DNA from: Candidatus Hydrogenedentota bacterium
GTDB lineage: Bacteria; Hydrogenedentota; Hydrogenedentia; Hydrogenedentales; CAITNO01
Length of the DNA: 60,753 nt
NCBI GenBank assembly: GCA_903822375.1
Contig: CAIJOU010000830.1
Coordinates: forward strand, 1 to 60,753
Reading direction: 5' to 3'
Numbering within the stretch: the stretch's first letter is position 1; each line of letters starts with the position of its first letter. Shown one piece after another: positions 4,448-47,526 of this stretch. The translations under genes were made by a program, and so were the position numbers. The notes beneath the pieces were generated by a model. It worked only from the letters and a program-made list of their open reading frames with translations, was not told the DNA's origin and ran no database searches.

Positions 4448-6118
4448 ATGGAAAACAGCCCATATCGCAAGCGCGTCATATACGGGATGGGGGGGCTTAC
4501 CATCAGCCTCTCCGACCTGATAGTTATGCAGTGGCTGCTGGTCAGGTATTTGCCCCCCGACAAACCCCATCTCGTTCCTGCGGCCTTTTTCGGTGCGCTC
4601 ATGCTCTTGGGCCGTTTGACCGAGGGCGTCGGTTTCGCGTTCTTTGCGCACTGGAGCGACAATTGCCATGCGAAAAGCGGAAGACGGCTTCCGTTCATGC
4701 GGCTTTCCATCGTGCCCTTCGCGGTGACATTTTTCCTGCTGTTCATGCCCCCCGTGGACCATGCGCACTGGCTGAACATGGTCTATGCAGCAGTAACCAT
4801 TCCCGTGTACTTCGGACTGTACGGTGCGGTCGTGGTCCCTTATCTGGCCTTACTTCCCGAACTAAGCAAGGGCGGCAAAGAGCGCATTAACCTGAGCACC
4901 TGCCAATCCCTCTTCATCCTCCTGTCGACCATCTTTTTTGGCCTGAGCGGGCCCGCCCTGAACCATTTCGGCTGGGCCTTCGTGATGGGCGCCGCGGCGG
5001 TGCTGGGCGTTGCCTTCTTCATGCCCGCCTGCCTGCTGCTGCGCGAGACCAAAGAGACTGAAAAATCACCGCAGGAGCGTCTTCCGCTTTGGCCGTCCGT
5101 TGCGGATGTGCTAAGGAGCCAGCCTTTTCGGCGCGCGCTGATTTCCATAGGATTGTTCTGGTTTGCGCTCAACGCGCTCACCGCATTGGTGCCCTACTGG
5201 ACGGTCATCACCCTGGGACGCAGCGAGGATGACGTGGCCAAACTTATGGGCCTCTATCTGTTGGTCAGTTTTGGTGCGTCACTGGCCATCAACCGTTTTG
5301 CCAAACGCCATGGCAAATACGCGACCCTGCTCGGCGTCTATCTGGCCGGCGCGGTGATATTTCCATCGCTGGCGCTGGTGGGACACCTGCCCTTCGGCGA
5401 TGAATTCACGCAGAGTCTCGTGGTGCTCGCGCTGTGCGGCATACCGGTGGCCGGGTTTCTCATCCTGCCCTTTGCCATTCTGGCGGACGTGGTCGATCAT
5501 GATACAAGACTCACGGGACGCCGCCGGGAGGCGACTTTCTACGGTGTCAGGGGTGTGCTGCAAAAGCTGCTCATCGGCGTGTCCGTGCTCACCTTCACCG
5601 TCGTCCCCTACTTGGGAAGCGATGGAAGCCGTGTCCTGCGGCAGGACGGCTGGGTATCATTCTCCGCAAGCTATTCCCCCCTTCCGGACAGCCCGGCACC
5701 CATGGACAGCACCCTTCCGTCCGATGCAGCGAGGCAGCGCCCCGCCGGGCGCAGCATTCACCTGACAGTAAAGCCTGCGGGACTCCCCGCTCCATGGTCA
5801 TTGTCGGGACCCGATGGGTTTCAGTTGAACGGCAAGGGGGATGCCATGCTCCCCGACATGGTGCCGGCCGCCTATTCAGTGGCTTGGGGCGACCTGCCCG
5901 GGTGGACCGCCCCAACGCCCCAGCGCATTCCAACCCCCGGCGGGCTCAAGTTCATGGCGCTGCTCTGCGGCGTGTTCAGCGCCGCCGCGTTCATTGTCTT
6001 CCTGAAATATCCCCTGCGGGAACAGGGAATACGCGCGCACACGGGGCGCGCAGCCTGGAGAAGTGAAATGGATTCAACCGCGGAACTCGCCCCGTTGGGC
6101 GGCGAGGTGGGCGTATGA
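4448..6118 (+). CDS. MFS transporter, glycoside-pentoside-hexuronide (MelB-like) type, with a ~110-aa insertion before the last TM
   Basis: Multi-TM profile typical of GPH symporters. The non-hydrophobic segment at 5614-5940 sits between ..VLTFTVVPYLG and GLKFMALLCGVFSAAAFIVFL. Confidence 0.75.
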   Translation: MENSPYRKRVIYGMGGLTISLSDLIVMQWLLVRYLPPDKPHLVPAAFFGALMLLGRLTEGVGFAFFAHWSDNCHAKSGRRLPFMRLSIVPFAVTFFLLFMPPVDHAHWLNMVYAAVTIPVYFGLYGAVVVPYLALLPELSKGGKERINLSTCQSLFILLSTIFFGLSGPALNHFGWAFVMGAAAVLGVAFFMPACLLLRETKETEKSPQERLPLWPSVADVLRSQPFRRALISIGLFWFALNALTALVPYWTVITLGRSEDDVAKLMGLYLLVSFGASLAINRFAKRHGKYATLLGVYLAGAVIFPSLALVGHLPFGDEFTQSLVVLALCGIPVAGFLILPFAILADVVDHDTRLTGRRREATFYGVRGVLQKLLIGVSVLTFTVVPYLGSDGSRVLRQDGWVSFSASYSPLPDSPAPMDSTLPSDAARQRPAGRSIHLTVKPAGLPAPWSLSGPDGFQLNGKGDAMLPDMVPAAYSVAWGDLPGWTAPTPQRIPTPGGLKFMALLCGVFSAAAFIVFLKYPLREQGIRAHTGRAAWRSEMDSTAELAPLGGEVGV

Positions 6119-6194
6119 CGCCCATCGCCTGGAACCAAACTTGACCGTTCTCAACGTGCCAGCCAATTGCGGCAAAACATCCTTGGAGGTTGCC

Positions 6195-7385
6195 ATGAAT
6201 ATTAACCGCAGACAATTCCTGAAAACCGCAGGGGCCGGAATCGCGGCCGTTGCCGCCTTTGAGGTGGTAGGCCGCGCCGGGCTGTTCCCGTTGACAGGCG
6301 CCTCCGCGGCACCGAATATCCCGCTCGCCGACCAGGTGCTCGGTCCCATACCCAAAGATCCCCAGGCGCGGTCGATTTTGCGCATGTCCGAGTTGAACCG
6401 GCTCCCCTGGTTCGAAAAGGGCGAGGCGGGGCAGTTGCGGCTGGCATCGGGTGCCGGAATCCCCCCCGTGATTGACGTGCACACCCACGTTGGCTGGAGC
6501 CAGGGGCTGGGCGAGGACATTGACATGACGGCGCGCAGTCCGGTCCGCTACTTCTGGAACTACGAAATAGCCCAGGATTTCCTCAACATACAGCTCCATC
6601 CGACGCCGGGCGAGGCGGAAGCGATGGCCGATGAAACGAAGTACCTGGTCTTCAAGACACCGGAGCGCAACAAGACCCACACCGCCGCCAACCTCGTGGC
6701 GGAAATGGCGCGTTTCAACCATGCCCGGTCGGTAATGCTGCCCGTCGAGATACCCGTTCGGTCCCGTCATGCGGAACAGACCCGGCAGGCCGCCAGGGTG
6801 GACGATCGGCTCATCGCCTTCTCAGGCATCCACCCCTGGCACTGGTCGGAGGAAAAGGAAAAGCAGCTTGCAGCAACGCTTGGCGGCACCGTGCGCGGGC
6901 TCAAGTTTCATCCGGTGTTCCAGTTCATGGGGCCTGACCACCCCGATGCGATGAAGATGTTCGAATGGTGCGCGGCGCATGACGTGGTGGTGCTGGCGCA
7001 CACGGGCTTTACCGGCAGCGAGCCCGGCTTCATGCAGGCCTTTGCCGAACCGGAACGTTTTGCCGCCCCGCTCAAGGCCTTTCCCAAACTCAAGATGGTC
7101 TTCGGACACACCGGGTCGCGAAAGCGCTTTCACGAAACCCTCGCCGTGGCCAGAAGACATGAGGACCAGGTGTGGCTCGAATTCTCAGGCCAGCCGGTTC
7201 CCCATATCCGCACGGTCATCGACCATTATGACAAGTCGAAAATTGTCTACGGTTCCGACTGGCCCTACTACCCGCTTGCGGTGGCGCTGGCCCGCTTCCT
7301 GGTGGCCACGGAAGACCAGCAAGACCTCCGGCAGGCGATCCTTCATGACAATGCCGCCAGACTGCTGGGGCTGCCCCTGGCGTGA
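6195..7385 (+). CDS. Tat-exported amidohydrolase-family metal hydrolase
   Basis: MNINRRQFLKTAGAGIAAVAA twin-arginine signal. VIDVHTHVGW, VFGHTGS and YGSDWPY motifs of the amidohydrolase_2 type. GGAGG RBS at 6186-6190. Start trimmed from 6063. Confidence 0.8.
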   Translation: MNINRRQFLKTAGAGIAAVAAFEVVGRAGLFPLTGASAAPNIPLADQVLGPIPKDPQARSILRMSELNRLPWFEKGEAGQLRLASGAGIPPVIDVHTHVGWSQGLGEDIDMTARSPVRYFWNYEIAQDFLNIQLHPTPGEAEAMADETKYLVFKTPERNKTHTAANLVAEMARFNHARSVMLPVEIPVRSRHAEQTRQAARVDDRLIAFSGIHPWHWSEEKEKQLAATLGGTVRGLKFHPVFQFMGPDHPDAMKMFEWCAAHDVVVLAHTGFTGSEPGFMQAFAEPERFAAPLKAFPKLKMVFGHTGSRKRFHETLAVARRHEDQVWLEFSGQPVPHIRTVIDHYDKSKIVYGSDWPYYPLAVALARFLVATEDQQDLRQAILHDNAARLLGLPLA

Positions 7386-8386: not shown

Positions 8387-10138
8387 CTACCTCCCCGCGG
8401 GTTCCTGGTGCATCTTTTTGAAGGTCATCAGGTTGGGCGCCCAGAGATGCTTGACCGGGTCCACGTCGATGTGGATGACGGCGGTTGTGCCGGACTGGAG
8501 CGCGTTGCCAATGGCCTCTTTGAGTGCCACGGGTGACTGCACGCGCGCGCCGAAAGCGCCCATGGCCTCGGCAACCCGGTCGAAGCGAATTTCACCCAAC
8601 TCGGTGTTGACGGTTTCCTCCGGCTTGAGCGTCTTGAACAGGATGGTCTTCCATGGGTGTGTCGCGAACTGCTGCGTCATCTTGACCATGCCCCATTGCT
8701 TGTCGCAGCAGACGAGAAACACGACCCGAAGCCGGTTGCGCACGGCGGTTTCGATCTCCTGAATGTTGAAACCCATTGCCCCGTCGCCGATGATGCAGTA
8801 AACCTGTCTTTCGGGAAAGGCGGCCGCAGCGCCCAGCGCCTGCGGAACGCCCGCGCCGAGCATGCCGAATTTGGCGGTCATAAGCAGTGTGTTGGGCTCC
8901 TTCACGTCGTGAAAGAACTGTCCCCAGATGGTCGTGTTGCCGCCGTCGAGTACGCATACGGCGTCCCGGGAAAACTCGTTTCCGCACACGTCCGCCACGT
9001 GTGCCGTGTTAAGCGGCTCCGCACGGTCTTCCAGGTGCTCATCGAGCTTTGTGCGCCGCGCCGACCGTTCCCTGGCATAGGCATCAAGGCGTTGTTTTCT
9101 GTCACACACGAAAACCTGTTTCATGCGTTCACTGACCGCGTCATGCAGCGCCGCAAGAAAGGCCTTCGCATCGGCCAGAATGGCCACATCCACGGGCTTG
9201 TTCAGACCGAGCATGTCCTCGTCGTTGTCCACCTGGATGGTGCTTTGTTTTGGTGCCTGCGCCCAGTTGGGCGCCTTGCCCCACCAGTCCGTTTCACCCA
9301 GGCGCGAGCCCACCACAAGCAGTACGTCGGCCTCGTTGCGCACCCGGTCCAGCAGGTCCACATAGGGCATGGGGATGGCGGTGTGGGACTCCTCCGACAG
9401 GGCCGCCCGCGCCCCCCAGCTTGTGGACACCGGCGCATGCAGCAGTTCGGCCACCTTGCGCAGTTCCTCAAAGGCCTGTGCGTGAATCACGCCGCTGCCC
9501 GCATGAATCAGCGGCGCCTCGGCCGATGTGAGCAAGTCCGCCGCCCGCGCCACGAGCGCCGGGTCGGGTTGAATGCGCCCCGTGAGACGGTACGTTTCCG
9601 GCAAGGGCAACGGTACCGGCGCATCTTTGCCGTTGATAATGTTCTCTGGAATGTCCACATGCACCACGCCCGGCCTGCCTTTGAAGGAATGGCGGAAAGC
9701 GCGCCTCATGAATTCCGGAAGGCGGGCAAAGGCCGGGACACTCCCGCTCCATTTGGCCGTGGGCGCAATCACACCCACCTGGTCGAAATACTGGTACGTG
9801 CCGCCGCGGTCGGGATTGCTGACGCCCACACGGCGCGAACTGGTAATGAGCAGCACCCGGTTCCCCTCGGCCTGCTCGACCACCACGCCCGGAAGAACAT
9901 TGGCAACGCCGGGGCCGCTGCTCGCCAGACACACGCCCAAACGGCCCGTGAGCCGCGCATAGGCACCCGCCATGTGCGCGGCGCAGGCCTCATGACGCGG
10001 GGTAATCAGTCGTATGCCCTGTCTGCGCAGCGCGAAATTCAGCGCCAGATAGGACCCGTCGATGATGCCGAACACCGTGTCCACGCCTTCGTTCTTGAGC
10101 ATGCGTGCGATGATTTCACCGCCGGAAACTTTGTCCAT
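8387..10138 (-). CDS. Thiamine-pyrophosphate enzyme (acetolactate synthase-like family)
   Basis: GGEIIARMLKNEGVDTVFGI, SSGPGVANVLPGV and the GDGAMGFNIQEIETAVRN TPP-binding motif. Start trimmed to MDKVSGG (10138). 4-nt gap to the SDR gene. Confidence 0.85.
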   Translation of the reverse strand: MDKVSGGEIIARMLKNEGVDTVFGIIDGSYLALNFALRRQGIRLITPRHEACAAHMAGAYARLTGRLGVCLASSGPGVANVLPGVVVEQAEGNRVLLITSSRRVGVSNPDRGGTYQYFDQVGVIAPTAKWSGSVPAFARLPEFMRRAFRHSFKGRPGVVHVDIPENIINGKDAPVPLPLPETYRLTGRIQPDPALVARAADLLTSAEAPLIHAGSGVIHAQAFEELRKVAELLHAPVSTSWGARAALSEESHTAIPMPYVDLLDRVRNEADVLLVVGSRLGETDWWGKAPNWAQAPKQSTIQVDNDEDMLGLNKPVDVAILADAKAFLAALHDAVSERMKQVFVCDRKQRLDAYARERSARRTKLDEHLEDRAEPLNTAHVADVCGNEFSRDAVCVLDGGNTTIWGQFFHDVKEPNTLLMTAKFGMLGAGVPQALGAAAAFPERQVYCIIGDGAMGFNIQEIETAVRNRLRVVFLVCCDKQWGMVKMTQQFATHPWKTILFKTLKPEETVNTELGEIRFDRVAEAMGAFGARVQSPVALKEAIGNALQSGTTAVIHIDVDPVKHLWAPNLMTFKKMHQEPAGR

Positions 10139-10274
10139 ATGCGACTCCCTTCTCTGAGAAACCTGTTGGTCCGAAATGCGCCGAAAGACAGTCGGCTGTT
10201 GGGGGTTTTTCACCACAACCCGAAAGCGTGTCGGGGTTATCTGACGTTTTGCGCCCGAGACAACCGGACAACCC

Positions 10275-11219
10275 CTATATTTGCCAGTCGGGTGGCACTT
10301 CCTGCTTGAAGGTCTGGGGTTTTCGGTCACGGTACTGCAGTTCCGGATTCTTGACGGTCACGCGCGTGTTGGGTGGCACGGACTGCGTGACGAACACGTT
10401 GCTGCTGATGATGACGCCTTTACGAATTACCGTTTCGCCGCCCAGGATGGATGCGCCCGAATAGACCGTAACCTCATCCTCCAGCATGGGGTGCCGTCTC
10501 ACTCCGCGCAGTTTCTGCCCGCCCCGCGTGGAAAGCGCTCCCAGCGTTACACCCTGGTACACCTTGACATGGTTGCCGATGCGGCTGGTTTCCCCTATCA
10601 CAACACCCGTGCCGTGGTCGATGAAGAAATACTCCCCAATGTGCGCCCCCGGATGTATGTCGACGCCCGTGACGCTGTGGGCATACTCGGTCATGATGCG
10701 CGGAATCAGGGGCACGCCCTGCAAATGCAGCTCATGCGCCAGACGATACACGGTGATGGCGAAGAACCCGGGATAGGAAAAGATGATTTCGTCCATGTCC
10801 GCAGCGGCCGGGTCGCCGTCGAAAGCCGCCTGCACATCGGTCGCCAGCACTTCCCGCAGCCCGGGAAGGGTCCTGAGAAAACCGGTCACTATCCGGTCGG
10901 CATGACCCTCACTGTCAGGGATGGATTCACCGCGGTGGGCGGCTTCGTGGATAAGCGCGTTTTGCACCTGTTTCAAAAGGCTGGCGTGAATGCTCACCAG
11001 CAAATCGCCAACGTGATACTCCAGGGTGCCCGCAACCAGATTCTGCTTGCCAAAATAGCCTGGAAACAGGAGTTGGCGCAGCAGCTGGATGATTTCGACG
11101 ATGGCATCGTGATTGGGCAGCCTGCCCGAATCTATATGGCAGGTTCTGGGCTCCGCGTGATAGCTGGCAACAATTGTTGCGACTAGGTCGGAGAACTTGT
11201 TGGAGGCATTGGGGCCCAT
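10275..11219 (-). CDS. cysE: Serine O-acetyltransferase
   Basis: SAT N-terminal domain followed by hexapeptide repeats: DIHPGAHIGEYFFIDHGTGVVIGETSRIGNHVKVYQGVTLG. Confidence 0.9.
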   Translation of the reverse strand: MGPNASNKFSDLVATIVASYHAEPRTCHIDSGRLPNHDAIVEIIQLLRQLLFPGYFGKQNLVAGTLEYHVGDLLVSIHASLLKQVQNALIHEAAHRGESIPDSEGHADRIVTGFLRTLPGLREVLATDVQAAFDGDPAAADMDEIIFSYPGFFAITVYRLAHELHLQGVPLIPRIMTEYAHSVTGVDIHPGAHIGEYFFIDHGTGVVIGETSRIGNHVKVYQGVTLGALSTRGGQKLRGVRRHPMLEDEVTVYSGASILGGETVIRKGVIISSNVFVTQSVPPNTRVTVKNPELQYRDRKPQTFKQEVPPDWQI

Positions 11220-11509
11220 TCGTATTTCCTTTCATAATAGGACTGCAACCGAAACTTGACATACATAATCATGATATGGTACTTTAATCGCGTGAAGTAT
11301 ACCACAGGTCAACTGGTCAGATGTATAGTATTTGTTTTCCGGTCGGAATAGAATGGTACCGCTCATGAGTTCTGCTAAAAACAATTGGTCCATGCAATAT
11401 CGAATTTTGGCGCGGGAGAGTCATCGCAACGAACGGTTGCAAGACCGCGAGGCGCGGCCGGAACGACACCGAACACTGAACGTCTTTTGGAAAAGGGGGT
11501 AACTCAGAG

Positions 11510-12478
11510 ATGCCTCTCCTTCAGGAAATCAATGAGGCGCCCACAGTGGCTGGCACATCGCCCGGCCCAAATGACTTGGCGGCCCGGATAGGAAACACCC
11601 CGCTCATTCTGCTGTCCCGTCTCGTGCCGGACCTGCCCGCAGGGGTGCAGGTCTATGCCAAGGCCGAGCACCTGAACCCCGGCGGGTCCGTGAAGGACCG
11701 CGCAGCCTGGTCGATGATAGGCGACGGTATCCGTACGGGCCGGCTCCGCCCGGGAATGACCATTCTGGACGCCACCAGCGGTAACACCGGAATTGCCTAC
11801 GCCATGATCGCCGCCACACTGGGCTACCCGGTCACACTGTGCCTGCCCAGGAACACCAGCGCGGAGCGCAAACGAATCATGCGGGCTTACGGGGCGGAAC
11901 TCATCGAGACCGACCCATTGCAGAGTTCCGACGGCGCGCAAATTCGCGCCATGGAACTGGCCGCCCAGGCACCGGACAGGTATTTCTACCCGGACCAGTA
12001 CAACAACGACGCCAATTGGCGTGCCCACTATGAGACCACCGCACCGGAGATTTGGGAACAGACCGGCGGGCGCGTTACCCATTTTATTGCCGGCATGGGC
12101 ACCTCGGGCACCTTTACCGGCACGACACGCCGGCTCAAGGAACTGAACCCCGGCCTGCATGCCGTGCGCATGCAGCCCGATTCGCCCCTGCACGGTTTGG
12201 AGGGGATGAAGCACATGGAAACCACCATCGTGCCCGGCATCTATGACGCCTCCCTGGCCGACGAGGAAGTCGAGGTCGCGACAGAAGACGCCCAGGCGAC
12301 CGCCCTGCAGTTGGCGCGAAGGGAAGGCTTGTTCGTTGGCGTAAGTTCAGGAGCGAACGTTTTCGCCGCCGTCCGGCTTGCCCGCAGGCTGTCCAGCGGT
12401 GCGGTCGTGGTAACCGTCCTGTGTGATACCGGCGCGCGTTACCTGGGGGATACGTTTTGGGAGGCCGTTGACCCATGA
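11510..12478 (+). CDS. cysM: Cysteine synthase, CysM-like (PLP-dependent; candidate CysO-thiocarboxylate-dependent type)
   Basis: IGNTPLI, the NPGGSVKDRAA PLP-lysine motif, TSGNTGIA and GTSGTFTG. Its stop overlaps the next start (ATGA at 12475-12478). Confidence 0.9.
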   Translation: MPLLQEINEAPTVAGTSPGPNDLAARIGNTPLILLSRLVPDLPAGVQVYAKAEHLNPGGSVKDRAAWSMIGDGIRTGRLRPGMTILDATSGNTGIAYAMIAATLGYPVTLCLPRNTSAERKRIMRAYGAELIETDPLQSSDGAQIRAMELAAQAPDRYFYPDQYNNDANWRAHYETTAPEIWEQTGGRVTHFIAGMGTSGTFTGTTRRLKELNPGLHAVRMQPDSPLHGLEGMKHMETTIVPGIYDASLADEEVEVATEDAQATALQLARREGLFVGVSSGANVFAAVRLARRLSSGAVVVTVLCDTGARYLGDTFWEAVDP

Positions 12479-12903
12479 TCCGCGTCACCCCCCAACACCT
12501 TGCTGACATCGGCCTGCACGGCGAGGCGGATTATCCGCACGAATGTTGCGGCCTGCTGATCGGCCATATCGACGCGCAGGGGGTGAAGACCGTTGTGGAT
12601 ACGGCCCCCATTTCCAACGCCCGCGAAGAGGAGGCCAAACGCAACCGCTTCCTCATAACGCCTGCCGAATTGATGGCCGGCGAACGGCTCGCCCGGCAGA
12701 ACGGGTTGGACATTGTGGGTTTCTACCACTCCCACCCCGACCAGCCGGCAACGCCCTCGCAATTCGACCTAGAGCACGCTTGGCCGACCTATTCCTATGT
12801 CATCGTTTCTGTGGGGCGGGGAAGCGCGGGCGAACTGCTTTCCTGGGAGTTGCGGGAAGATCGAACGTGCTTTGACAGCGAACCCATTTCGAAAGGAGGC
12901 TGA
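12475..12903 (+). CDS. mec: JAMM/MPN+ metalloprotease (Mec+-like)
   Basis: HECCGLLIG together with the FYHSHPDQPATPSQFD JAMM motif (H-x-H-x7-S-xx-D). Confidence 0.85.
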   Translation: MIRVTPQHLADIGLHGEADYPHECCGLLIGHIDAQGVKTVVDTAPISNAREEEAKRNRFLITPAELMAGERLARQNGLDIVGFYHSHPDQPATPSQFDLEHAWPTYSYVIVSVGRGSAGELLSWELREDRTCFDSEPISKGG

Positions 12904-12907
12904 GAAT

Positions 12908-14386
12908 ATGCCCGTTTCCATTCTGATACCAACCGCCCTGCGCCGCTTTTCCGGCGACCAGTCCGAGTTCGTCGTGGAGGCGAAAACCGCGGGGGATGCC
13001 CTGGCGCAGCTGACCGCAGCGCATCCAGACCTGCGCAAGCATCTTCTGAACGATCAGGGCGCGCTGCGCAGCTTCGTCAACGTGTACGTGAACGACGAAG
13101 ACATACGCCACCAGGCGGGTCTGGACACGCCCGTGGCCGACGGGGCCACGGTCATGATCGTGCCGTCGATTGCAGGCGGCGCCTGTTCGCTGGCGCCAGC
13201 TTCGGAAAGCGCGGACGAACTGCCTGAACTCACCAACCAGGAACTCTCCCGGTACAGCCGCCACTTGATCCTTCCGGAGGTCGGTCTTGCGGGCCAGCGC
13301 AAACTCAAGAACGCCCGCGTGCTGATCGTCGGTGCAGGCGGTCTGGGTGCACCGGTTGGCCTGTACCTGGCTGCGGCCGGCGTGGGCCACCTGGGCCTGG
13401 TGGATTTCGACGTGGTCGATGAGTCCAACCTTCACCGCCAGGTAATCCACGGCACACGCGACGTGGGCCGGGCCAAGGTGTCCTCGGCAGCCGATCGGCT
13501 CTATGACGTGAACCCCAAGGTGCATGTGGAGGCCTATGAAACGCGCCTGACCAGCCAGAACGCGCTCGAACTGTTGGCCGAATATGACGTCATCGTGGAC
13601 GGCACGGACAATTTCCCGACACGCTACCTGGTCAATGATGCCTGCGTGCTGTTGGGCAAGCCGAATGTGTACGGTTCAATCTTCCGTTTCGAGGGCCAGG
13701 CCAGCGTTTTCTGGGCCAGGGCCGGGGCGTGCTACCGGTGCCTCTATCAGGAACCGCCGCCGCCGGGACTGGTGCCCTCCTGCGCCGAGGGCGGCGTGCT
13801 GGGCGTGCTGCCCGGCATCATCGGCTCGATCCAGGCCAACGAAACGATCAAGCTGATCCTGGGCGGCGGCGACACGCTCATCAACCGGCTGCTGCTGTTT
13901 GATGCATGGAAGTTGCGTTTCCGCGAAATGAAGCTGCGCAGGGACCCCGCGTGCCCCATCTGCGGCGAACACCCGACCATCCACGAATTGATCGACTATG
14001 AGGCGTTCTGCGGCCTGCGCCAGCCCGTGTCGGACGCGGGTGAATCGGGCGCGGACAACGCCGCGCCGGATGAGATCACCGCCACAGAGTTGAAGCAGTG
14101 GATCGACGAGCAGCGCGATATCCAGCTCATCGACGTGCGCGAGGCGCACGAGTACGCCATTGCCAACCTGCCCTATGAAAAGCTCATACCGCTGGGCCAA
14201 ATAGTCACCCGCATGTCTGATATCGATCCCACCCGCGAAGCGGTGGTCTTCTGCAAGGGGGGCAACCGCAGCGCAAAGGCAATTATGGAACTGCGTTCGG
14301 CGGGCTTCGCCGGCCGGCTCATCAATCTGCAGGGCGGAATTCTCGCGTGGTCCGATCAGGTGGACCACAGCGTTCCGAAATATTGA
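12908..14386 (+). CDS. cysO-moeZ: Fusion of a CysO/MoaD-like sulfur carrier (aa 1-91, ending ..IAGG) with a MoeZ-type E1-like adenylyltransferase and a C-terminal rhodanese
   Basis: The N-terminus (SILIPTALRRF...FVNVYVNDEDIRHQAGLDTPVADGATVMIVPSIAGG) is a full ubiquitin-like carrier. It is followed by YSRHLILPEVG..GAGGLG (ThiF/MoeB), CxxC pairs and the rhodanese loop CKGGNRS. AGGAGG RBS at 12894-12899. Start trimmed from 12797. Confidence 0.85.
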   Translation: MPVSILIPTALRRFSGDQSEFVVEAKTAGDALAQLTAAHPDLRKHLLNDQGALRSFVNVYVNDEDIRHQAGLDTPVADGATVMIVPSIAGGACSLAPASESADELPELTNQELSRYSRHLILPEVGLAGQRKLKNARVLIVGAGGLGAPVGLYLAAAGVGHLGLVDFDVVDESNLHRQVIHGTRDVGRAKVSSAADRLYDVNPKVHVEAYETRLTSQNALELLAEYDVIVDGTDNFPTRYLVNDACVLLGKPNVYGSIFRFEGQASVFWARAGACYRCLYQEPPPPGLVPSCAEGGVLGVLPGIIGSIQANETIKLILGGGDTLINRLLLFDAWKLRFREMKLRRDPACPICGEHPTIHELIDYEAFCGLRQPVSDAGESGADNAAPDEITATELKQWIDEQRDIQLIDVREAHEYAIANLPYEKLIPLGQIVTRMSDIDPTREAVVFCKGGNRSAKAIMELRSAGFAGRLINLQGGILAWSDQVDHSVPKY

Positions 14387-14473
14387 GGATCGTTTTCTAC
14401 AAGCGTTGTGGGCCGTTAAGGCGGGGTATCCGCTGACCGACAGCGCAAGACATCAACCCAAGGAGAAACAATC

Positions 14474-15415
14474 ATGGCCGAAACCAAAATCCAGGGTCAC
14501 GTGCTGGGCGATGCTGCGGCATTCCAGCTCGCCGACGTCACGAAGACCGCGCCGCAGTATGGCGCAATAACCCCGCGGTGGCTGGTCCGCCTGCTGGACT
14601 GGAAGCCGCTGGAGGCGGGCACGTTTCGCCTCAACCGCGTTGCCGAGGACAAGCCCATTGAGTTGTGCTGCGGACAGAAGGACGAGCGCGCCCTGTCCCG
14701 GACCTACGTCAATTATGTGGACAAGCCGCGCGAGTACACCCTGAACAACATCAGCACCATACTGGATGTGCACACGCGCGTTTCCGACATCTACAGCAGC
14801 CCGTTCGACCAGATCCAGGAACAGCTCCGGCTGACCATTGAGAGCATCAAGGAGAAGCAGGAAAACGAACTGATCAACAGCCCGGACTACGGCCTGCTTA
14901 AGAACGTCCCCCGGGAACAGCGCATCCCGACCCGCAAGGGCCCCCCGACCCCCGATGACCTGGACGACCTGATTTCCAAGGTGTGGAAAGACCCGTCGTT
15001 CTTCCTGGCCCATCCGCGCGCCATCGCGGCGTTCGGCAGGGAATGCACGCGGCGCGGCGTTCCGCCCCCCACAGTCACGCTGTTCGGCGCCCCCTTCCTG
15101 ACTTGGCGCGGCATCCCGCTCATTCCCACCAACAAGCTGCTGGTGGACGGCAAAGCGGAACCGACGGGCAACGGCGGCAAGACCAACATTCTGCTCGTCC
15201 GCGTCGGCGAGAAAAAGCAGGGCGTGGTCGGCCTCTATCAGCCCAACCTTCCGGGCGAGCAGACGCCGGGCCTGTCCGTGCGCTTCATGGGCCTCAACGG
15301 ACAGGGCATCGGGTCCTACCTGATTTCGCTCTATTGCTCCGCCGCTATACTGGTGGACGACGCCATTGCCGCGCTTGAGCAGGTCGATGTTGGCAACTAC
15401 TATGACTACAAGTAA
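14474..15415 (+). CDS. Family 2A encapsulin shell protein (HK97 fold, no cNMP insertion)
   Basis: 313 aa with blocks I recognise from SrpI-type shells: ITPRWLVRLLDWKP, HTRVSDIYSSPFDQIQEQLRLTIE, FFLAHPRAIAAFGRECTRRGVPP and VVGLYQPNLPGEQ. Sits directly upstream of a desulfurase that has a disordered N-terminus. Confidence 0.85.
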   Translation: MAETKIQGHVLGDAAAFQLADVTKTAPQYGAITPRWLVRLLDWKPLEAGTFRLNRVAEDKPIELCCGQKDERALSRTYVNYVDKPREYTLNNISTILDVHTRVSDIYSSPFDQIQEQLRLTIESIKEKQENELINSPDYGLLKNVPREQRIPTRKGPPTPDDLDDLISKVWKDPSFFLAHPRAIAAFGRECTRRGVPPPTVTLFGAPFLTWRGIPLIPTNKLLVDGKAEPTGNGGKTNILLVRVGEKKQGVVGLYQPNLPGEQTPGLSVRFMGLNGQGIGSYLISLYCSAAILVDDAIAALEQVDVGNYYDYK

Positions 15416-17399
15416 CCTGGACAAGGCCGCACAGGCGTTCGCGCCGGAGTCGCTGCCCGACTTGGACCAGTTGAGCGCCCTGAGTGCAATCGAGGCGGGT
15501 CTTCCCGACCCGGCCGCACTCGCCCGGTTGGCCAACGAGTACTTCAGCTCGGTACCGACGGCAGACCCGACGGGTGGGGCTGTTGCCTCGCCGCCGGAAG
15601 ATGCCGCGCTGCTGCCGTCACAACCGGGTACAACGCCCATCGCGCCGGTGATCACGCCGGTTCCGCTGACCTCGGCACCTGCCGATGTCGCGTTGCCGAC
15701 GGTCGGCACAGTGTCGGAACCGGAACTGGCCGCGCTGCCCGCTTCGCTCACCGGCGTGCCGGATACCAAGGCGTACGGCGTTCCCGGTGGGATTTCAGCG
15801 GGTGATTTTTCCTCGGTGCCGTCCTTCGGGTTTGTCGACGAGGCACGGTCCCTTTACGGCACGGTGCCCACTGCCGCCGTTCTTGCAGCGCCTGCCTTGG
15901 AAACGATCAAGTTTCCCGCGGAGACGGAGGTGAACACTCCGGCGCCGCTCCCTGGCTCGGTTCCGACGGTTCACTTCCCGAAACCCGCCGAGGCGTCCGC
16001 GCCCCAGGTTTCCGGCGTTGTTGCCCACGATATCCAGCGTGGTCGTCCCGCGACCTACGGTTTCATCGACAGCGTCCGGTCGCTGGACCCGGTGGATGTG
16101 GTGCCGCGCCTGGAGCCGCTGGCGGCATCATCGGCGGCGGGCCCGATTGCCGGCGCGGTTGCCGCACCATTCGACCTGGGTGCGGTCCGGCGGGACTTCC
16201 CCATCCTGCAGGAACGGGTCAGCGGCGGCAAGCCGCTGATCTGGCTCGACAACGCCGCCACGACGCAAAAGCCCCAGGCGGTCATCGACCGTTTGGCGTT
16301 CTTCTATGAGCACGAGAACTCCAACGTGCATCGTGCCGCCCATGAGTTGGCAGCGCGGTCCACCGACGCCTATGAGGGCGCGCGGGATAGGGTTGCCAGG
16401 TTCCTAAACGCCTCCTCTTCCAGTGACATCATCTTCGTGCGGGGTGCCACCGAAGGCATCAACCTTGTTGCGCAAAGTTGGGGACGCCGCAATATTCAGC
16501 AGGGCGACGAGATCATTGTCACCTGGCTGGAGCACCATGCGAACATCGTCCCCTGGCAGCAGTTGGCCGCCGAGAAAGGCGCGCGCCTGCGCGTTGCCCC
16601 GGTGGATGACCGTGGCCAGGTCCTGCTCGACCAGTACGAGGCGCTATTCACGCCGCGCACGCGGTTCGTTTCGCTGGCGCACGTGTCCAACGCACTCGGG
16701 ACGGTGACACCGGCTGCGGAGATGGTCGCCATCTCCCACCGCCACGGCGCGAGAGTGCTGGTCGACGGTGCGCAGGCAGTCTCGCACATGCCCGTGGACG
16801 TGCAGGCACTAAACCCCGACTTCTATGTGTTTTCGGGGCACAAGGTTTTCGGACCCACCGGTATAGGCGTGGTTTACGGAAAGCCCGACGTGCTCGCGGA
16901 AACCCCGCCGTGGCAGGGCGGCGGCAACATGATCGCCGATGTGACCTTTGAAAAGACGGTCTACCAGGCGGCGCCGGCCCGGTTTGAGGCGGGCACCGGC
17001 AGTATCGCCGACGCGGTCGGCCTTGGCGCGGCGATTGATTACATCAACCGCCTCGGCATGGCCAACATCGCACGCTACGAGCACAACCTGCTGCAGTACG
17101 GCATCGAGGCACTCCAGCGCATTCCGGGCCTGCGCCTGATCGGCACGGCACGGGAGAAGGCCAGCGTGCTGTCCTTCGTGCTGGACGGCTTCAGCACCGA
17201 GGAAGTGGGTAAGGCGCTCAGCCGCGAAGGCATCGCGGTGCGTTCCGGCCATCACTGCGCACAGCCCATCCTGCGCCGCTTCGGTCTGGAGAGCACCGTG
17301 CGCCCGTCGCTGGCGTTCTACAACACCTGCGAGGAAATAGACACGCTTGTTGCCACCGTCTGGAATCTGAAGATCGGACGCGGTTCGGGACTGAGATGA
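15402..17399 (+). CDS. Cysteine desulfurase (SufS-like) with a ~265-aa disordered N-terminal encapsulin cargo-loading domain
   Basis: Pro/Ala-rich N-terminus containing LARLANEYFS (15519-15548). The SufS core follows: FPILQE...WLDNAATTQKP, SGHKVFGPTGIG (PLP lysine) and SGHHCAQP (catalytic Cys). The start is ambiguous (15366, 15387 or 15402). All three candidates overlap the shell gene's 3' end. Confidence 0.9.
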   Translation: MTTSNLDKAAQAFAPESLPDLDQLSALSAIEAGLPDPAALARLANEYFSSVPTADPTGGAVASPPEDAALLPSQPGTTPIAPVITPVPLTSAPADVALPTVGTVSEPELAALPASLTGVPDTKAYGVPGGISAGDFSSVPSFGFVDEARSLYGTVPTAAVLAAPALETIKFPAETEVNTPAPLPGSVPTVHFPKPAEASAPQVSGVVAHDIQRGRPATYGFIDSVRSLDPVDVVPRLEPLAASSAAGPIAGAVAAPFDLGAVRRDFPILQERVSGGKPLIWLDNAATTQKPQAVIDRLAFFYEHENSNVHRAAHELAARSTDAYEGARDRVARFLNASSSSDIIFVRGATEGINLVAQSWGRRNIQQGDEIIVTWLEHHANIVPWQQLAAEKGARLRVAPVDDRGQVLLDQYEALFTPRTRFVSLAHVSNALGTVTPAAEMVAISHRHGARVLVDGAQAVSHMPVDVQALNPDFYVFSGHKVFGPTGIGVVYGKPDVLAETPPWQGGGNMIADVTFEKTVYQAAPARFEAGTGSIADAVGLGAAIDYINRLGMANIARYEHNLLQYGIEALQRIPGLRLIGTAREKASVLSFVLDGFSTEEVGKALSREGIAVRSGHHCAQPILRRFGLESTVRPSLAFYNTCEEIDTLVATVWNLKIGRGSGLR

Positions 17400-17448
17400 C
17401 ATAGATTGTAATTGACTGCCGTAGTGCAAAAGACAACCTGTAATGCAA

Positions 17449-17504
17449 GTGCGCGGAGAACGCGAAGCTAAACCCTTCGAAGTCCTCCGCGCACATCGTT
17501 TTTT
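17449..17504 (+). terminator. Rho-independent terminator after the desulfurase
   Basis: GTGCGCGGAG (17449-17458) pairs with CTCCGCGCAC (17485-17494). An inner CGAAG/CTTCG stem is present, and ATCGTTTTTT follows. Confidence 0.55.
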
Positions 17505-17542
17505 CCTAACCCTTTGCTCCCATGGGAACGAGAATAGCGCTG

Positions 17543-17878
17543 TCAGACCGGGTTCGTTTTCTCGTGCACGACGGGAGGGGTTGGCTGTTCATTCACGGTC
17601 AGGCGAAAGATATCGGGCCTGCTGTAGTGGCCGACCACGTCGAAATCAAACATGCCCCTGCCAATGTCGTTCAGGTCCAAGTCCGCAGTCAGAATGGTCT
17701 CGCCATGGAAGCGCGGCCCGGCCAGAATCTCGCCCAAAGAATTGATAATGGCGCTCCCGCCGCGTATCAACCCGCTGTCGGGTAGGTCACCCCGGCGGAG
17801 GATCTGGCAGGCCGTCAGCACAAGGCAGCGCCCCGTCGGACACTGGTAGCGCTCGTGAGTCCCGTGAAGGCTGAAGCG
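17543..17878 (-). pseudogene. C-terminal remnant of a nitrilase/CN-hydrolase gene
   Basis: GRCLVLTACQILRR...GGSAIINSLGEILAGP..ILTADLDLNDIGRGMFDFDVVGHYSRPDIF matches only the last ~110 aa of nitrilases. An in-frame TGA lies at 17879-17881. No room remains for the catalytic E-K-C region before the next gene. Confidence 0.6.
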
Positions 17879-18018
17879 TCACTGGCGGCTGCCTGAGTTT
17901 CAAAAACCATAACGGCGCAACGCATTCAGCGTCGCGCCGATGTGGAACGGGCATGTCGATTCGACACGGGCGTTGCGGTTCGTTCCCGCAGCGCTCCCGG
18001 AAAGAAAAGAGCCCTACC

Positions 18019-20472
18019 CTACGGGGCTGCCAGCCGGATGTAGTCGCTGTAGACGGCAGAGTAATTGCCAACCCGGTCAAGGAACTGCACACGTACCGTG
18101 TGGTAGCCGAGCCCGGCCGGAAGCGTGTGGGCGTAAACGGCGGCGGGTGCAACCCAGGCGGACCATGTCGAACCGTTGTCGCTGAAGCGCATGCCTGCCA
18201 CGCCGGTACCCGAGTCCGACCAGGTCAGCTTCAGCGTCACCGACTGGGTGGTTGTGGCCGACGCACCGTCGTTGATGATAATCGTGCCCGTCGGTGGCGT
18301 TGAGTCCAGCAGGATATAGTCGCTGAATACGGCCGAACGGTTGCTGCCGCTGTCGAGATACTGCACGCGCACCGTCCTGTAGCCGTCGCCGGGAAGCAGC
18401 GTGTGTGAAAACGTCGGGCTCAAAGGCAGCCAGCCGGTCCATGTTGCACCGTCATTGCTGAAGCGCATCCGTACCACGCCTGTGCCCGTGCCGCCGGCCC
18501 ACGCCAGGGAAAGCGTGACCGCGGTACTCTTCGTAAGGGGGCTGTTGCCGTTGATGACAATGGAACCCGTCATGGGGGGGGCGACACCCTTCGACACCGC
18601 CAAAGCCACCGCAGCACCGGGCGTCACTTCTCCGCCCGCCGCGGGGTTCTGGCTGATGACCAGGCCTGCCGCCACCGTTCCGCTGTACTGCAGGGTCACC
18701 GCGCCCGTGACCAGACCGGCGTTGGCAAGCGCGGTGCCCGCCGCCGTCTGTGTCATGCCCACCACATCGGGGACAATTGCGGGGATGGTGACACTAACCG
18801 TGCACGTGGCGGTTCCGCCGTGGCCGTCGTCCACGCCCACCGAGAAGGTGTCGTCTCCCACATAGTGCATGCCGGGCGTATACCCGATGGTCTTCACCGC
18901 ACCGGTGCCCGACACGTCTGCCGTGCCGTGGCTGGCGGCCGTTGTGACACTCCAGGTCAGGACGTCGCTTTCCGCATCGGTGGCATGAAGCGTCAGGCTG
19001 AACGGCGTCGGGGACCCGTCCTCCGACATGGTGACCGACACGGAACTGCCCTCGGTGATCACGGGGGCGGTGTTGTAATCCAGTATCCACGGCTCCCGTC
19101 CGTTACCCGCCGTGGTGGCGGCGAACACGAGACGCCCCCGCACTTCAACAAAACTGTCGGGGTCGGAACCGGCTGCGCTCGGACTGTCCTGATTAATGTT
19201 CAGTGTTCGGAAGGTACCGGCCGGGGTTCCGTCCGTTTGCCACAGCTCCCGTCCTTCCGACGCTGTCGTGGCGGCGAAATACAGGATGCTCCGATACGCG
19301 AAGAACGGTCCCGGCTGTGAGCCGGAAGAGCCGGAACTGATATCCTTAACCCGTGTGGTGCCGGCCGCCGTGCCGTTGGACTTCCATAACTCGTTGTCAA
19401 ATGCGCCGTCTGCCGCCGAGAAGATGAGGGACCCGTTGTAGGCGGTAAGAAATGCCGGGTTGCTGCCGTTTGGTCCCGGCAGGATATCGCCAACGAGTCC
19501 GAGATTGCCGACCGCGCCGGTGGTCGACCACAATTCCGTTCCAGTGGGCGCTCCTCCGGCATCTCCCCGGGAGGCCAGAAAGAGAGTGTTGCCCACGGGG
19601 GTCAGCCGGGACGGCAGGGCAAAGTCGCCGGGTTCGGTCAGGACATCCACCGTCTGGACATTGCCCGCCTGTCCGTTGGACACCCAAAGCTGGCTTCCGT
19701 TCACGCCGTCATCCGCCGCAAAGTAAAGATTGCCGTTGAAAGCCGTCAGACTGGACGGGGAAGACGACGCCGCGCCGACACGGATATCGGCCAGCAGAGT
19801 GGTCGCTGTCCCGTCCGACATCCAGACTTCGCGGCCGTGGGCGCCGTCATCGGCCGTAAAATAGATTTCTGACCCGAGAACGGTGAAATCGGCCGGATTG
19901 GAACTTCCGGCGCCGGGATTGATATCAACCGTGCCCAACGCTGCTCCGTCGGTGTGGCACAGCTCGATACCGTTGCCCCTGTTGGCCGCGAAGAAAAGAA
20001 GTCCGTTTGCCACAGTGAGATACTTTGGATTCGCATCGTTGCCGGGATACACACCCAGTGGGGTGAAATTCCCCGCGGTTCCCGTGGTAACCCACAGGTC
20101 CCTGCCTGCCGACCCGTCAGATGCGGAAAAGTAAAGCTTGTTGTTGTATGCCGTGAAGTTCGCGGGAAACGAACCTCCCGTGCCGGGGACGATGTCCGCA
20201 AACAGCACCGTGCCGTTCGCAGTGGTGTCACTGACCCAGACTTCTGCCCCGTTGGTCGGATCGGTTGCCTGGAAGAAAAGCTGGCCGTTAAACGCGCAAA
20301 AATCGCGGGGGTCCGAGGCCGCAGTCCCGGCGGCAATTTCCTTGAGCAGGTGGATCGGCACCACCGCATGGCCTGGAACCGCCCAAAGCACCAGTCCCGC
20401 TGTGAGGACCGCTGCGATTCCCTGCCTGAATTCGAAGGCGCGATGCCTGGCATAAGTCGGAGGCTGTGTCAT
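18019..20472 (-). CDS. Secreted ELWxxDGT-repeat protein with an Ig-like region, one PASTA domain and two C-terminal ~95-aa repeats
   Basis: About 9 repeats such as GRELWQTDGTPAGT, NELWKSNGTAAGT and GREVWMSDGTATT. PASTA domain IVPDVVGMTQTAAGTALANAGL..VISQNPAAG. Duplicated module ..MRFSNDGATW..GYRTVRVQYLDSGSNRS. Start trimmed to MTQPPTY (20472). Confidence 0.85.
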   Translation of the reverse strand: MTQPPTYARHRAFEFRQGIAAVLTAGLVLWAVPGHAVVPIHLLKEIAAGTAASDPRDFCAFNGQLFFQATDPTNGAEVWVSDTTANGTVLFADIVPGTGGSFPANFTAYNNKLYFSASDGSAGRDLWVTTGTAGNFTPLGVYPGNDANPKYLTVANGLLFFAANRGNGIELCHTDGAALGTVDINPGAGSSNPADFTVLGSEIYFTADDGAHGREVWMSDGTATTLLADIRVGAASSSPSSLTAFNGNLYFAADDGVNGSQLWVSNGQAGNVQTVDVLTEPGDFALPSRLTPVGNTLFLASRGDAGGAPTGTELWSTTGAVGNLGLVGDILPGPNGSNPAFLTAYNGSLIFSAADGAFDNELWKSNGTAAGTTRVKDISSGSSGSQPGPFFAYRSILYFAATTASEGRELWQTDGTPAGTFRTLNINQDSPSAAGSDPDSFVEVRGRLVFAATTAGNGREPWILDYNTAPVITEGSSVSVTMSEDGSPTPFSLTLHATDAESDVLTWSVTTAASHGTADVSGTGAVKTIGYTPGMHYVGDDTFSVGVDDGHGGTATCTVSVTIPAIVPDVVGMTQTAAGTALANAGLVTGAVTLQYSGTVAAGLVISQNPAAGGEVTPGAAVALAVSKGVAPPMTGSIVINGNSPLTKSTAVTLSLAWAGGTGTGVVRMRFSNDGATWTGWLPLSPTFSHTLLPGDGYRTVRVQYLDSGSNRSAVFSDYILLDSTPPTGTIIINDGASATTTQSVTLKLTWSDSGTGVAGMRFSDNGSTWSAWVAPAAVYAHTLPAGLGYHTVRVQFLDRVGNYSAVYSDYIRLAAP

Positions 20473-20494
20473 AGAAGCCACTCCACGGGTTGTG

Positions 20495-21013
20495 TTACGA
20501 ACGCGCCGGAAAGATCCCCTGCAGCGCAATGATGAACCTGACCGTCAGATACGGCATGAGATTGTTGTGCGGTTGCTCCCCTCCGGCGGGCGTAACCGCA
20601 GACGACGATAGGGGCGTGTCCGCGGGACCTGACGCATATAGGGACGCGGCCCCCGAATTCGCCAGAGCGTTTCCGGACGGGCTTGCGGTGTTGGCCACGG
20701 TCGAGGACGCGTGAAGCGTGTGGGTGTGCGGGGGGGCCTGGGCCGGAGAAATGGTTACTGACTCGGCACCGGCGCTTTCCCCGAGGCTGCGCGGGGTCAG
20801 GCCGGGGCCGTCGCCCGCATGCATGGGTGCGCGGCTTCTCAGGTCGGGCAGCGCAAAGTTGCTGGTTCCATTGCCGCCGTAGGTGGTGCCGAGGAGGCTG
20901 AACAGGGCCGTGTTCTGCGAGATGGAAAGCAGTCGCCCATCGCAGAACGCCCACCCGGTCGGCTCAAAATTGCCTGCAAAAGGTCTTATTTCGGCAACAA
21001 AAGGTTCACTCAT
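20495..21013 (-). CDS. Phage tail collar domain protein (MdpB-like), paralog C
   Basis: MSEPFVAEIRPFAGNFEPTGWAFCDGRLLSISQNTALFSLLGTTYGGNG..FALPDLR is the canonical collar-domain N-terminus. Confidence 0.85.
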   Translation of the reverse strand: MSEPFVAEIRPFAGNFEPTGWAFCDGRLLSISQNTALFSLLGTTYGGNGTSNFALPDLRSRAPMHAGDGPGLTPRSLGESAGAESVTISPAQAPPHTHTLHASSTVANTASPSGNALANSGAASLYASGPADTPLSSSAVTPAGGEQPHNNLMPYLTVRFIIALQGIFPARS

Positions 21014-23084: not shown

Positions 23085-23564
23085 ATGAATCCCGGCAACC
23101 TTGTGCTTCGTCCCTGTGATGACCGCGACAAGGACTTTCTGTTTGCCTTGTTTGTGAGCGTGAGAATGGACGAGTTTTCCGCCCTGAACTGGTCTCCAGC
23201 ACAGCTTGAACCGTTGTTGCGCGTTCAGTTCGCCGCCCAGTCCCAATCGTATGCCTCGGCGTTCCCGCAGGCCGCGCACGAAATCATCTGCCTCGGGCAG
23301 GAACCCGTGGGGCGCATGATCATGGACGACTCGGCGGAGGCGATGCACCTCGTGGATATCGCTTTGATTCCCGCATGCCGTGGCCGGGGGCTTGGCACCA
23401 CACTGATCCGGAAACTGCAGGCACAGTGTACCGTCCTCCGAAAGCCCCTGAGATTGCACGTGGCGGGAAGCAATCGCGCAATTAACTTGTACGAACGGCT
23501 CGGATTCGTTGCCGCCGCCGACACGGAGATGTACCGTTTCATGGAGTGGAATCCGGCGCAATGA
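23085..23564 (+). CDS. GNAT-family N-acetyltransferase
   Basis: Acetyl-CoA motif A (IPACRGRGLGTTLIRKL) followed by NRAINLYERLGF. An alternative GTG start lies at 23070. Confidence 0.8.
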   Translation: MNPGNLVLRPCDDRDKDFLFALFVSVRMDEFSALNWSPAQLEPLLRVQFAAQSQSYASAFPQAAHEIICLGQEPVGRMIMDDSAEAMHLVDIALIPACRGRGLGTTLIRKLQAQCTVLRKPLRLHVAGSNRAINLYERLGFVAAADTEMYRFMEWNPAQ

Positions 23565-47471: not shown

Positions 47472-47526
47472 CGCCTGTACGGCATGGCCTTTGCTGCAGG
47501 AAGTATCTTTCCGCGACGTTGCGAAA

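Follow-up and report, generated by a model that had tools for sequence, protein, structure and literature searches.

Family 2A encapsulins are protein shells that house a cysteine desulfurase. Examples include SrpI of Synechococcus elongatus (6X8M), the shell of Acinetobacter baumannii 118362 (8T6R) and Mmp1/Enc-CD of Mycobacterium smegmatis. Their shell and cargo genes overlap, a serine O-acetyltransferase (SAT) gene is adjacent, and the cargo is a SufS-type desulfurase with a long N-terminal domain that carries the motif LARLANE(F/Y)FS. The encapsulated desulfurases deposit crystalline elemental sulfur in the shell and are induced by sulfur limitation; the remobilisation of this sulfur is stated to be unknown, and the rhodanese of the operon has been proposed to take part in it (PMC10836720; PMC12746231). 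In M. smegmatis, the sulfur of the shell can be reduced to sulfide by thiols (PMC11659603). Beyond the shell and the desulfurase, the published operon types have no genes other than those for a stand-alone rhodanese and a SAT, both of them optional (PMC10836720). Here we describe a 60,753-nucleotide (nt) stretch of DNA from a Candidatus Hydrogenedentota bacterium (the window) in which a Family 2A shell and desulfurase share a locus with a cassette for cysteine synthesis through a protein thiocarboxylate. Because this pairing recurs, a functional connection of the encapsulin and its desulfurase with the CysO-type module is well supported.

The thiocarboxylate pathway of Mycobacterium tuberculosis consists of the sulfur carrier CysO (Rv1335), the cysteine synthase CysM (Rv1336), the protease Mec (Rv1334) and the activating enzyme MoeZR (Rv3206c). 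MoeZR thiocarboxylates CysO, and a cysteine desulfurase has been proposed as the donor of MoeZR; the primary sulfur donor in mycobacteria, for molybdenum cofactor (Moco) synthesis, is stated as still to be elucidated (PMC3227635). The type 4c systems of Iyer, Burroughs and Aravind 2006, which combine a ThiS/MoaD carrier, an E1-rhodanese, a JAB protease and a cysteine synthase, were described in Acidobacteria, Chloroflexi, Proteobacteria and others (PMC1779556). All four M. tuberculosis activities, and the same four type 4c components, are also encoded in the window. Its carrier is fused to the N terminus of the E1 enzyme, and the E1 gene is part of the operon, whereas in M. tuberculosis it is unlinked. 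PMC1779556 reports no carrier-E1 fusion of this kind and dates from before the encapsulin literature cited here. Compared with the published Family 2A types, the rhodanese of the window is a domain of the CysO-E1 fusion and stands, together with cysM and a JAMM gene, between the SAT and the shell. Each half by itself is a known system, and an operon type joining them is not found in the literature: our search, which covered the neighbourhood tables of Andreas and Giessen 2021 in part, returned no relevant paper that joins encapsulin with CysO, MoeZ, MoeB, ThiF, thiocarboxylate or adenylyltransferase.

Genes and junctions of the locus

The locus occupies 10275-17399. Its six genes, their domains and the elements between and after them are as follows (aa, amino acids; PLP, pyridoxal phosphate).

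10275-11219, minus strand: cysE, serine O-acetyltransferase, 314 aa, divergent from cysM
11220-11509: divergent AT-rich cysE-cysM intergenic region, 290 nt
11510-12478, plus strand: cysM, PLP-dependent cysteine synthase of B type, 322 aa
12475-12903, plus strand: mec-like gene for a JAMM/MPN+ metalloprotease, 142 aa
12908-14386, plus strand: ThiS-ThiF-Rhodanese fusion gene, 492 aa
12908-13180, plus strand: CysO-like ThiS-fold sulfur-carrier domain, fusion residues 1-91, ending in PSIAGG
13253-13957, plus strand: MoeZ/MoeB-type E1 adenylyltransferase domain, fusion residues 116-350
14078-14356, plus strand: C-terminal rhodanese domain, fusion residues 391-483
14387-14473, plus strand: fusion-shell spacer, 87 nt
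14474-15415, plus strand: Family 2A encapsulin shell gene, 313 aa
15402-17399, plus strand: cysteine desulfurase cargo gene
15402-16166, plus strand: N-terminal targeting domain of the cargo, residues 1-255
16167-17399, plus strand: SufS-type cysteine desulfurase catalytic domain of the cargo
17449-17504, plus strand: terminator-like hairpin followed by UUUUUU, 50 nt past the cargo stop codon

A preliminary description of this DNA had named cysE, cysM, the JAMM gene, the fusion, the shell and the cargo, and all six are present as open reading frames (ORFs) where it placed them. The tight packing that it described is likewise found in the sequence. ATGA at 12475-12478 belongs both to the stop of cysM and to the start of mec, and mec ends at 12903, leaving a gap of 4 nt to the fusion ATG at 12908, which is preceded by the Shine-Dalgarno sequence AAAGGAGG. 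The fusion gene ends 87 nt and its rhodanese domain 118 nt before the shell start codon at 14474, itself preceded by AAGGAG. The cargo ATG at 15402 lies inside the shell gene, whose stop is at 15415, and the overlap is 14 nt.

The 313-aa protein passes as an encapsulin shell in a profile search. It scores 507 bits against NF041162 (encap_f2a; cut-off 380) and 343 bits against PF19307. Family 2B shells are distinguished from 2A shells by a cNMP-binding insertion. No cNMP Pfam domain was found in the 313 residues, and the 2B model fits the C-terminal part only (profile positions 209-449). In the PDB it is closest to 8t6r, the A. baumannii shell (E 4e-136), and to SrpI 6x8m (E 4e-128), and the identity to the A. 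baumannii shell is ~70% as judged by eye from the alignment. Given the similarity to these solved shells, assembly of the protein into a T=1 icosahedral shell is likely.

The assignment of the desulfurase as cargo also stands. The protein scores 865 bits against NF041166 (f2_encap_cargo1; cut-off 800), the profile spans residues 29-656, and the catalytic motifs are intact, with the PLP-lysine motif SGHK at 478 and the catalytic cysteine in GHHC at 616. The catalytic domain scores 481 bits against Aminotran_5. The best PDB match is 8kg1 (E 2e-181), an entry annotated merely as 'cysteine desulfurase', which we take to be the mycobacterial encapsulin-associated desulfurase. The N-terminal domain of 255 residues is Pro/Ala-rich and poorly kept between relatives. 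It contains LARLANEYFS at residues 40-49, corresponding to LARLANEFFS, a conserved motif of the SrpI cargo (PMC8049743), so the cargo carries a targeting domain of the LARLANEFFS type.

The cysE product contains SATase_N and Hexapep domains and scores 157 bits against TIGR01172, below the cut-off of 211. Phycisphaerae loci L044, L068 and L072 (loci are cited by our own numbers) have SAT genes immediately next to, and divergent from, their Family 2A shell genes; the cysE product is 65-68% identical to these SATs and is for this reason of the encapsulin-associated type. cysE provides the SAT gene of the canonical four-gene Family 2A operon (rhodanese, SAT, shell and desulfurase; Benisch 2024).

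CysM scores 250 bits against PALP and 367 bits against TIGR01138, slightly under the cut-off of 394, and contains the PLP-lysine motif SVKDR and the motif TSGNTG. Its identity to E. coli CysM is 49% and to M. tuberculosis CysM 38.6%; the M. tuberculosis sequence compared is identical to the PDB chains. The locus enzyme is nearer to E. coli CysM, and it differs from M. tuberculosis CysM in having no counterpart of the mycobacterial C-terminal tail and in being encoded next to a SAT. The substrate of the characterised M. tuberculosis pathway is O-phosphoserine and not O-acetylserine, which a SAT supplies. Arg220 of M. tuberculosis CysM has a role in O-phosphoserine binding. Its equivalent is Lys in all cassette CysMs, that of the locus included, and Arg in E. 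coli CysM; this position was tried as a marker of O-acetylserine versus O-phosphoserine and rejected as non-discriminating. The adjacent SAT may point to O-acetylserine rather than O-phosphoserine as the substrate.

The mec product scores 87 bits against Prok-JAB and has the full JAMM motif HSHPDQPATPSQFD (H-x-H-x7-S-x2-D) from residue 85, with the upstream glutamate in ECCG; its best PDB match is 2kcq (E 2e-27). The Pfam domains of the fusion are ThiS (5-91), ThiF (116-350) and Rhodanese (391-483). The carrier domain best matches M. tuberculosis CysO from the complex with CysM (3dwg_C; residues 1-91 on 1-93, E 3e-15), and it also scores on the SAMP1 and MoaD models. The fusion scores 279 bits against ThiF and 522 bits against the MoeZ model NF005902, below the equivalog cut-off of 647. 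The E1 domain contains the nucleotide loop GAGGLG and the zinc motifs CYRC and CPIC, and its PDB matches are Uba4 (6yub) and MoeB (1jw9). The rhodanese domain scores 47 bits against Rhodanese and has the active-site loop CKGGNRS at residue 449. It is the sole rhodanese of the cluster, and the stand-alone rhodanese gene of the canonical four-gene operon is absent here.

The Gly-Gly of the carrier is internal, at residues 90-91 of the 492-aa fusion. The best 120 homologues of the fusion in the database are all ThiS-ThiF-Rhodanese proteins of at least 68% identity. P-[SA]-I-A-G-G is found in 120/120 of them, the Ser/Ala position alone varying; beyond it, the linker differs between homologues and carries insertions and deletions. 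Because the Gly-Gly is internal a processing step is required: the fused carrier must probably be cut free, and the cutter is most likely the JAMM protease. In HcyS/HcyD of Wolinella and QbsE/QbsD of Pseudomonas, the carrier Gly-Gly is exposed by a JAMM enzyme encoded alongside. An internal Gly-Gly is also known from M. tuberculosis MoaX, a MoaD-MoaE fusion that is cut at this site (PMC4326299). The window differs from MoaX, Hcy and Qbs in that the partner downstream of its carrier is the activating E1 itself, and here cleavage is predicted. The preliminary description had spoken of a complete CysO-thiocarboxylate pathway. All four activities are indeed encoded with intact motifs, and what it left out is the cleavage that CysO, no free protein here, needs.

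The cysE-cysM spacer is the probable promoter/operator region for cysE and for the unit from cysM to the cargo. Alignment with the three nearest loci (L002-L004) reveals a conserved block at ~11250-11375 (CTTGACA, GATATGGTA, GTATACCACA, TCCGGTCGGAATAGAATGG) in an otherwise diverged spacer. The block includes a TTGACA-like element, and a consensus scan places a promoter-like site on the minus strand at 11262-11234. The block may be an operator of some sulfur regulator; no regulator gene adjoins the spacer. A known riboswitch or leader RNA in the 290 nt is not supported, as an Rfam scan of 9500-18500 at E <= 1 gave zero matches. The fusion-shell spacer is kept in neither length nor sequence in L002-L004. 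No terminator-like structure was found in its 87 nt (fold z -0.33 against shuffles, no U-run, consensus scan blank), and the consensus promoter/terminator scan and the alignment neither favour nor disfavour an internal promoter. The hairpin past the cargo has a minimum free energy of -27.6 kcal/mol (z -4.4; 0/200 shuffles as stable); the consensus terminator scan missed it because of its large loop. Transcription of the unit from cysM to the cargo probably ends here. A single cysM-to-cargo unit with a divergent cysE fits the spacer and hairpin data, short of proof.

Recurrence of the pairing and distribution of the cassette

The neighbourhood survey of Family 2A loci that the preliminary description had proposed looked for a cassette within 10 kb of the 80 nearest shell relatives, and a full cassette stands beside at least 10 of the 80. 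Three further paired loci were reached via the fusion protein (L081-83, L096 and L169), and the total comes to at least 13 loci. By our own estimate a single-copy 3-kb cassette would fall within 10 kb of a given gene in ~0.4% of 5-Mb genomes, so the adjacency is beyond chance. Three gene orders are seen. The cassette precedes shell and cargo in the same orientation in L002-4, L061, L064, L081-83, L096 and L169, follows them in the same orientation in L016 and L029, and follows them in inverted orientation in L026, L048 and L051. The nearest loci, L002-L004, are Hydrogenedentota metagenome-assembled genomes with shells 84-98% identical; they have an identical six-gene arrangement, even where identity of the cargo N-terminal domains has fallen to 43-49%. 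L169 also has the six-gene arrangement of the window. The positive loci lie in at least five separate clades of a neighbour-joining shell tree, with negatives interspersed, and belong to at least three phyla: the pairing is seen in Hydrogenedentota, several Acidobacteriota orders and a probable Ignavibacteria lineage (L081-83).

Two unrelated sulfur gene sets could have come to lie side by side by chance in one lineage, and it agrees with this that most shells, and a still larger share of cassettes, lack the pairing. The number of clades and phyla, the differing gene orders and the Hydrogenedentota synteny, kept while the cargo N-terminal domains diverged, speak against it. Pure chance adjacency is extremely improbable and is effectively excluded by the recurrence. 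The linkage has been assembled or kept repeatedly, which argues for a functional connection.

In the Spirochaetia loci L070 and L080 the E1-rhodanese alone is found directly upstream of the shell, without a ThiS domain, cysM or a JAMM gene, and the rhodanese-bearing E1 is therefore the constant partner. In all upstream arrangements, 43-220 nt separate the end of the rhodanese domain from the shell start. Stand-alone rhodaneses occupy the same position before the shell in L074 and L079. Because of this shared position, and because the SAT is so similar to the shell-flanking SATs, the simplest description of the window is a canonical rhodanese/SAT/shell/desulfurase cluster whose rhodanese is embedded in a thiocarboxylate cassette.

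A different domain combination occurs near Family 2A encapsulins in Acidiferrales, where a 200-aa ThiS-Rhodanese protein without E1 follows cysM and mec (L048, 17231-17833, minus strand; L026, 13121-13717, minus strand). L048 also has a separate ThiS-domain match 40 nt upstream of an unfused E1-Rhodanese gene, between that gene and the encapsulin. To our knowledge, a carrier-rhodanese fusion has not been described.

The cassette is also found on its own. Among 80 metagenome loci of the fusion, 51 have enough upstream sequence, and cysM and the JAMM gene directly precede the fusion in 43 of these. The cysM-mec-fusion set is a widespread three-gene cassette and a member of type 4c of Iyer 2006. 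Genes for sulfite reductase, siroheme synthesis, phosphoadenosine phosphosulfate (PAPS) reductase, ATP sulfurylase and adenosine phosphosulfate (APS) kinase are downstream of it in L084-87 and L136, and iscR-iscS-iscU-iscA-hscB directly follows it in ~10 loci (L109, L113, L124, L125, L127, L131, L133, L143, L153 and L164). Unrelated genes follow in further loci, and a Family 2A shell and desulfurase follow in the lineage of the window, L081-83, L096 and L169. Since the downstream slot elsewhere holds sulfur-supplying genes, the encapsulin pair sits in a 'sulfur source' slot.

The iscS-bearing loci show a free cysteine desulfurase adjoining the rhodanese-E1 in another lineage. The desulfurases downstream of other cassettes were considered as unencapsulated relatives of the cargo and rejected; they are IscS proteins of 26-31% identity in iscR-iscS-iscU-iscA-hscB operons. 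In the Acidobacteriota loci L084-L087, L136, L170 and L171, a helix-turn-helix (HTH)-cupin regulator and a 1-Cys peroxiredoxin precede the cassette, often with a PLP enzyme of Cys/Met metabolism, and several of these loci have a complete assimilatory sulfate-reduction set downstream.

The thiocarboxylate, made with sulfur of the encapsulated desulfurase, could instead feed molybdopterin, tRNA thiolation or another thio-metabolite, with CysM as a bystander or a user of sulfide. Mycobacterial MoeZR is bifunctional, serving Moco and cysteine synthesis (PMC3227635), the ThiS domain of the window scores on SAMP1 and MoaD models as well, and the two Spirochaetia loci keep an E1-rhodanese beside the shell where cysM, mec and the ThiS domain are lacking. 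The company of cysM and the JAMM gene in 43 of the 51 loci, and their overlapping or abutting arrangement with the fusion here, point the other way, as does the carrier's closest structural relative, a CysO bound to CysM. Among the genes seen in the cluster, none is for MoaE, ThiG or tRNA thiolation. We consider such another product distinctly unlikely.

Co-regulation without direct sulfur flow is the strongest rival. The encapsulin pair and the cassette would then belong to one regulon for sulfur starvation or oxidative stress; the cassette would draw on sulfide or thiosulfate as it does elsewhere, and the encapsulin would separately sequester the sulfur of cysteine. Family 2A shells usually stand amid sulfur genes: the PMC8049743 supplement gives Hexapep at 56%, Rhodanese at 49%, ABC transporter components at 30-38%, LysR at 27% and PALP at 22.5%. 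The Acidobacteriota cassette behind its HTH-cupin regulator and 1-Cys peroxiredoxin, and before sulfate-reduction genes, works without an encapsulin, and responses to sulfur limitation or redox stress are reported for the two systems alike (PMC10836720; PMC8280819). The near-constant position of the rhodanese domain, close before the shell in every upstream arrangement, is harder to reconcile with mere co-regulation, as is the retention of the E1-rhodanese alone next to the shell in Spirochaetia, and the three gene orders point beyond a mere shared promoter. We hold co-regulation alone to be a substantial possibility, short of probable.

Proposed sulfur flow between shell and cassette

We favour the reading that the locus is a Family 2A operon with a complete thiocarboxylate cysteine cassette in place of the stand-alone rhodanese that is usual there, the shell-desulfurase pair and the cassette being the deposit and withdrawal arms of a sulfur bank. 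Its probability is, in our estimate, roughly 0.45. The cargo, targeted by its N-terminal domain, would turn cysteine into alanine inside a T=1 shell and leave sulfane or elemental sulfur there, as is known for its homologues. The JAMM protease would cut the fusion after Gly91 and free the CysO-like carrier; this site is proposed because the Gly-Gly is invariant and because of precedents such as MoaX. The E1 domain would adenylate the C-terminal glycine of the carrier. C449 of the rhodanese would take sulfane sulfur that presumably leaves the shell as a small molecule (sulfide, persulfide or polysulfide), and the sulfur borne by C449 would turn the carrier adenylate into a thiocarboxylate; the adenylation and this last step would follow the chemistry known for MoeZ/CysO. 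CysM would join the thiocarboxylate to the aminoacrylate formed from SAT-supplied O-acetylserine or from O-phosphoserine, and the same JAMM protease would then free cysteine from the CysO-cysteine adduct, both as known in M. tuberculosis. For a cysteine desulfurase as donor to rhodanese-E1 proteins there is precedent (PMC3227635). SATs are classically feedback-inhibited by cysteine. We speculate that withdrawal could be gated by the O-acetylserine supply through the cysteine-inhibited SAT, which would avoid a futile cycle.

The cassette may go further and be a dedicated exit route for the sulfur stored by Family 2A systems, with the rhodanese perhaps docking at the shell pores. The whole would be a self-regulating cysteine/sulfur buffer, in which deposit would occur at high cysteine and withdrawal when O-acetylserine accumulates. 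We regard this stronger proposal as less likely than not. The preliminary description had proposed a closed sulfur circuit. Its linkage is real and recurrent; the flow of shell sulfur to the rhodanese and the CysO thiocarboxylate is what we infer, and a direct hand-off through the shell has no place in it.

Several points weigh against the sulfur bank. Most of the 80 nearest shell relatives are without the cassette, and of the 54 metagenome loci that extend 1.2 kb or more downstream of the cassette just 1 has a shell, so the cassette is not encapsulin-specific. Neither partner therefore needs the other. The cargo would be sealed in the shell, which excludes the classical persulfide hand-off from desulfurase to rhodanese and calls for a small-molecule intermediate or docking at the pores. 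Deposit and withdrawal co-expressed in one unit is a futile cycle unless gated, since serine, acetyl-CoA and ATP would be spent on turning cysteine into alanine and then making cysteine again. A. baumannii has the one characterised encapsulin-associated rhodanese (Ab-RLD), and kinship of the fusion rhodanese with it was considered and rejected: a PDB search at E <= 0.01 gave no match identifiable as Ab-RLD, and the two are unrelated in sequence. Burns et al. in 2005 reportedly found that sulfide alone thiocarboxylates CysO-adenylate in vitro, in which case the rhodanese step may be dispensable.

Neighbouring genes and significance of the locus

Other genes of the window lie on both sides of the locus. 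A sulfatase (1505-3181, minus strand), an MFS_2 transporter (4448-6118, plus strand) and an amidohydrolase with a twin-arginine translocation (Tat) signal (6063-7385, plus strand) are found 3-9 kb upstream of cysE. This set might concern organosulfate use; sulfatases are reportedly numerous in related phyla, and we claim no link. The thiamine pyrophosphate (TPP) enzyme at 8387-10138 was considered as a sulfoacetaldehyde acetyltransferase and rejected, as it scores 248 bits against a cut-off of 676 and generic acetolactate-synthase models score equally. Between the cargo terminator and the next gene, a 92-aa ORF (17543-17821, minus strand) matches no more of the Nit6803 nitrilase family than its final ~65 residues (E 6e-11; profile TIGR04048, positions 236-300 of 301) and resembles a truncated nitrilase remnant. 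Two proteins with unusual surface-protein architecture are unrelated to the finding: an 836-aa ELWxxDGT-repeat protein with PASTA-like and OmpL47-type domains (18019-20529, minus strand), adjoined by a 172-aa phage tail collar protein (20495-21013, minus strand; PF07484, 97 bits), and a 1288-aa protein of 17 PASTA repeats (23509-27375, plus strand). Three tandem paralogues of ~800 aa each (42608-49992, minus strand) have a match to YfhO-family membrane proteins at their C-terminal ends only and coincide with a strong positive AT skew of +0.15 to +0.23 across 42-50 kb.

The pairing bears on a gap in the CysO pathway, the sulfur donor to MoeZR. If there is no direct flow of sulfur between shell and cassette, the locus is still a fifth operon organisation for Family 2A systems, and it still documents a very widespread ThiS-ThiF-rhodanese fusion. 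If the cassette is an exit route, it would be the first remobilisation pathway to be defined for a sulfur store with a protein boundary; by analogy, other operon types might use their stand-alone rhodaneses to feed carriers of a similar kind. This recurrent operon type offers a concrete candidate sulfur-recovery pathway that can be reconstituted in vitro.

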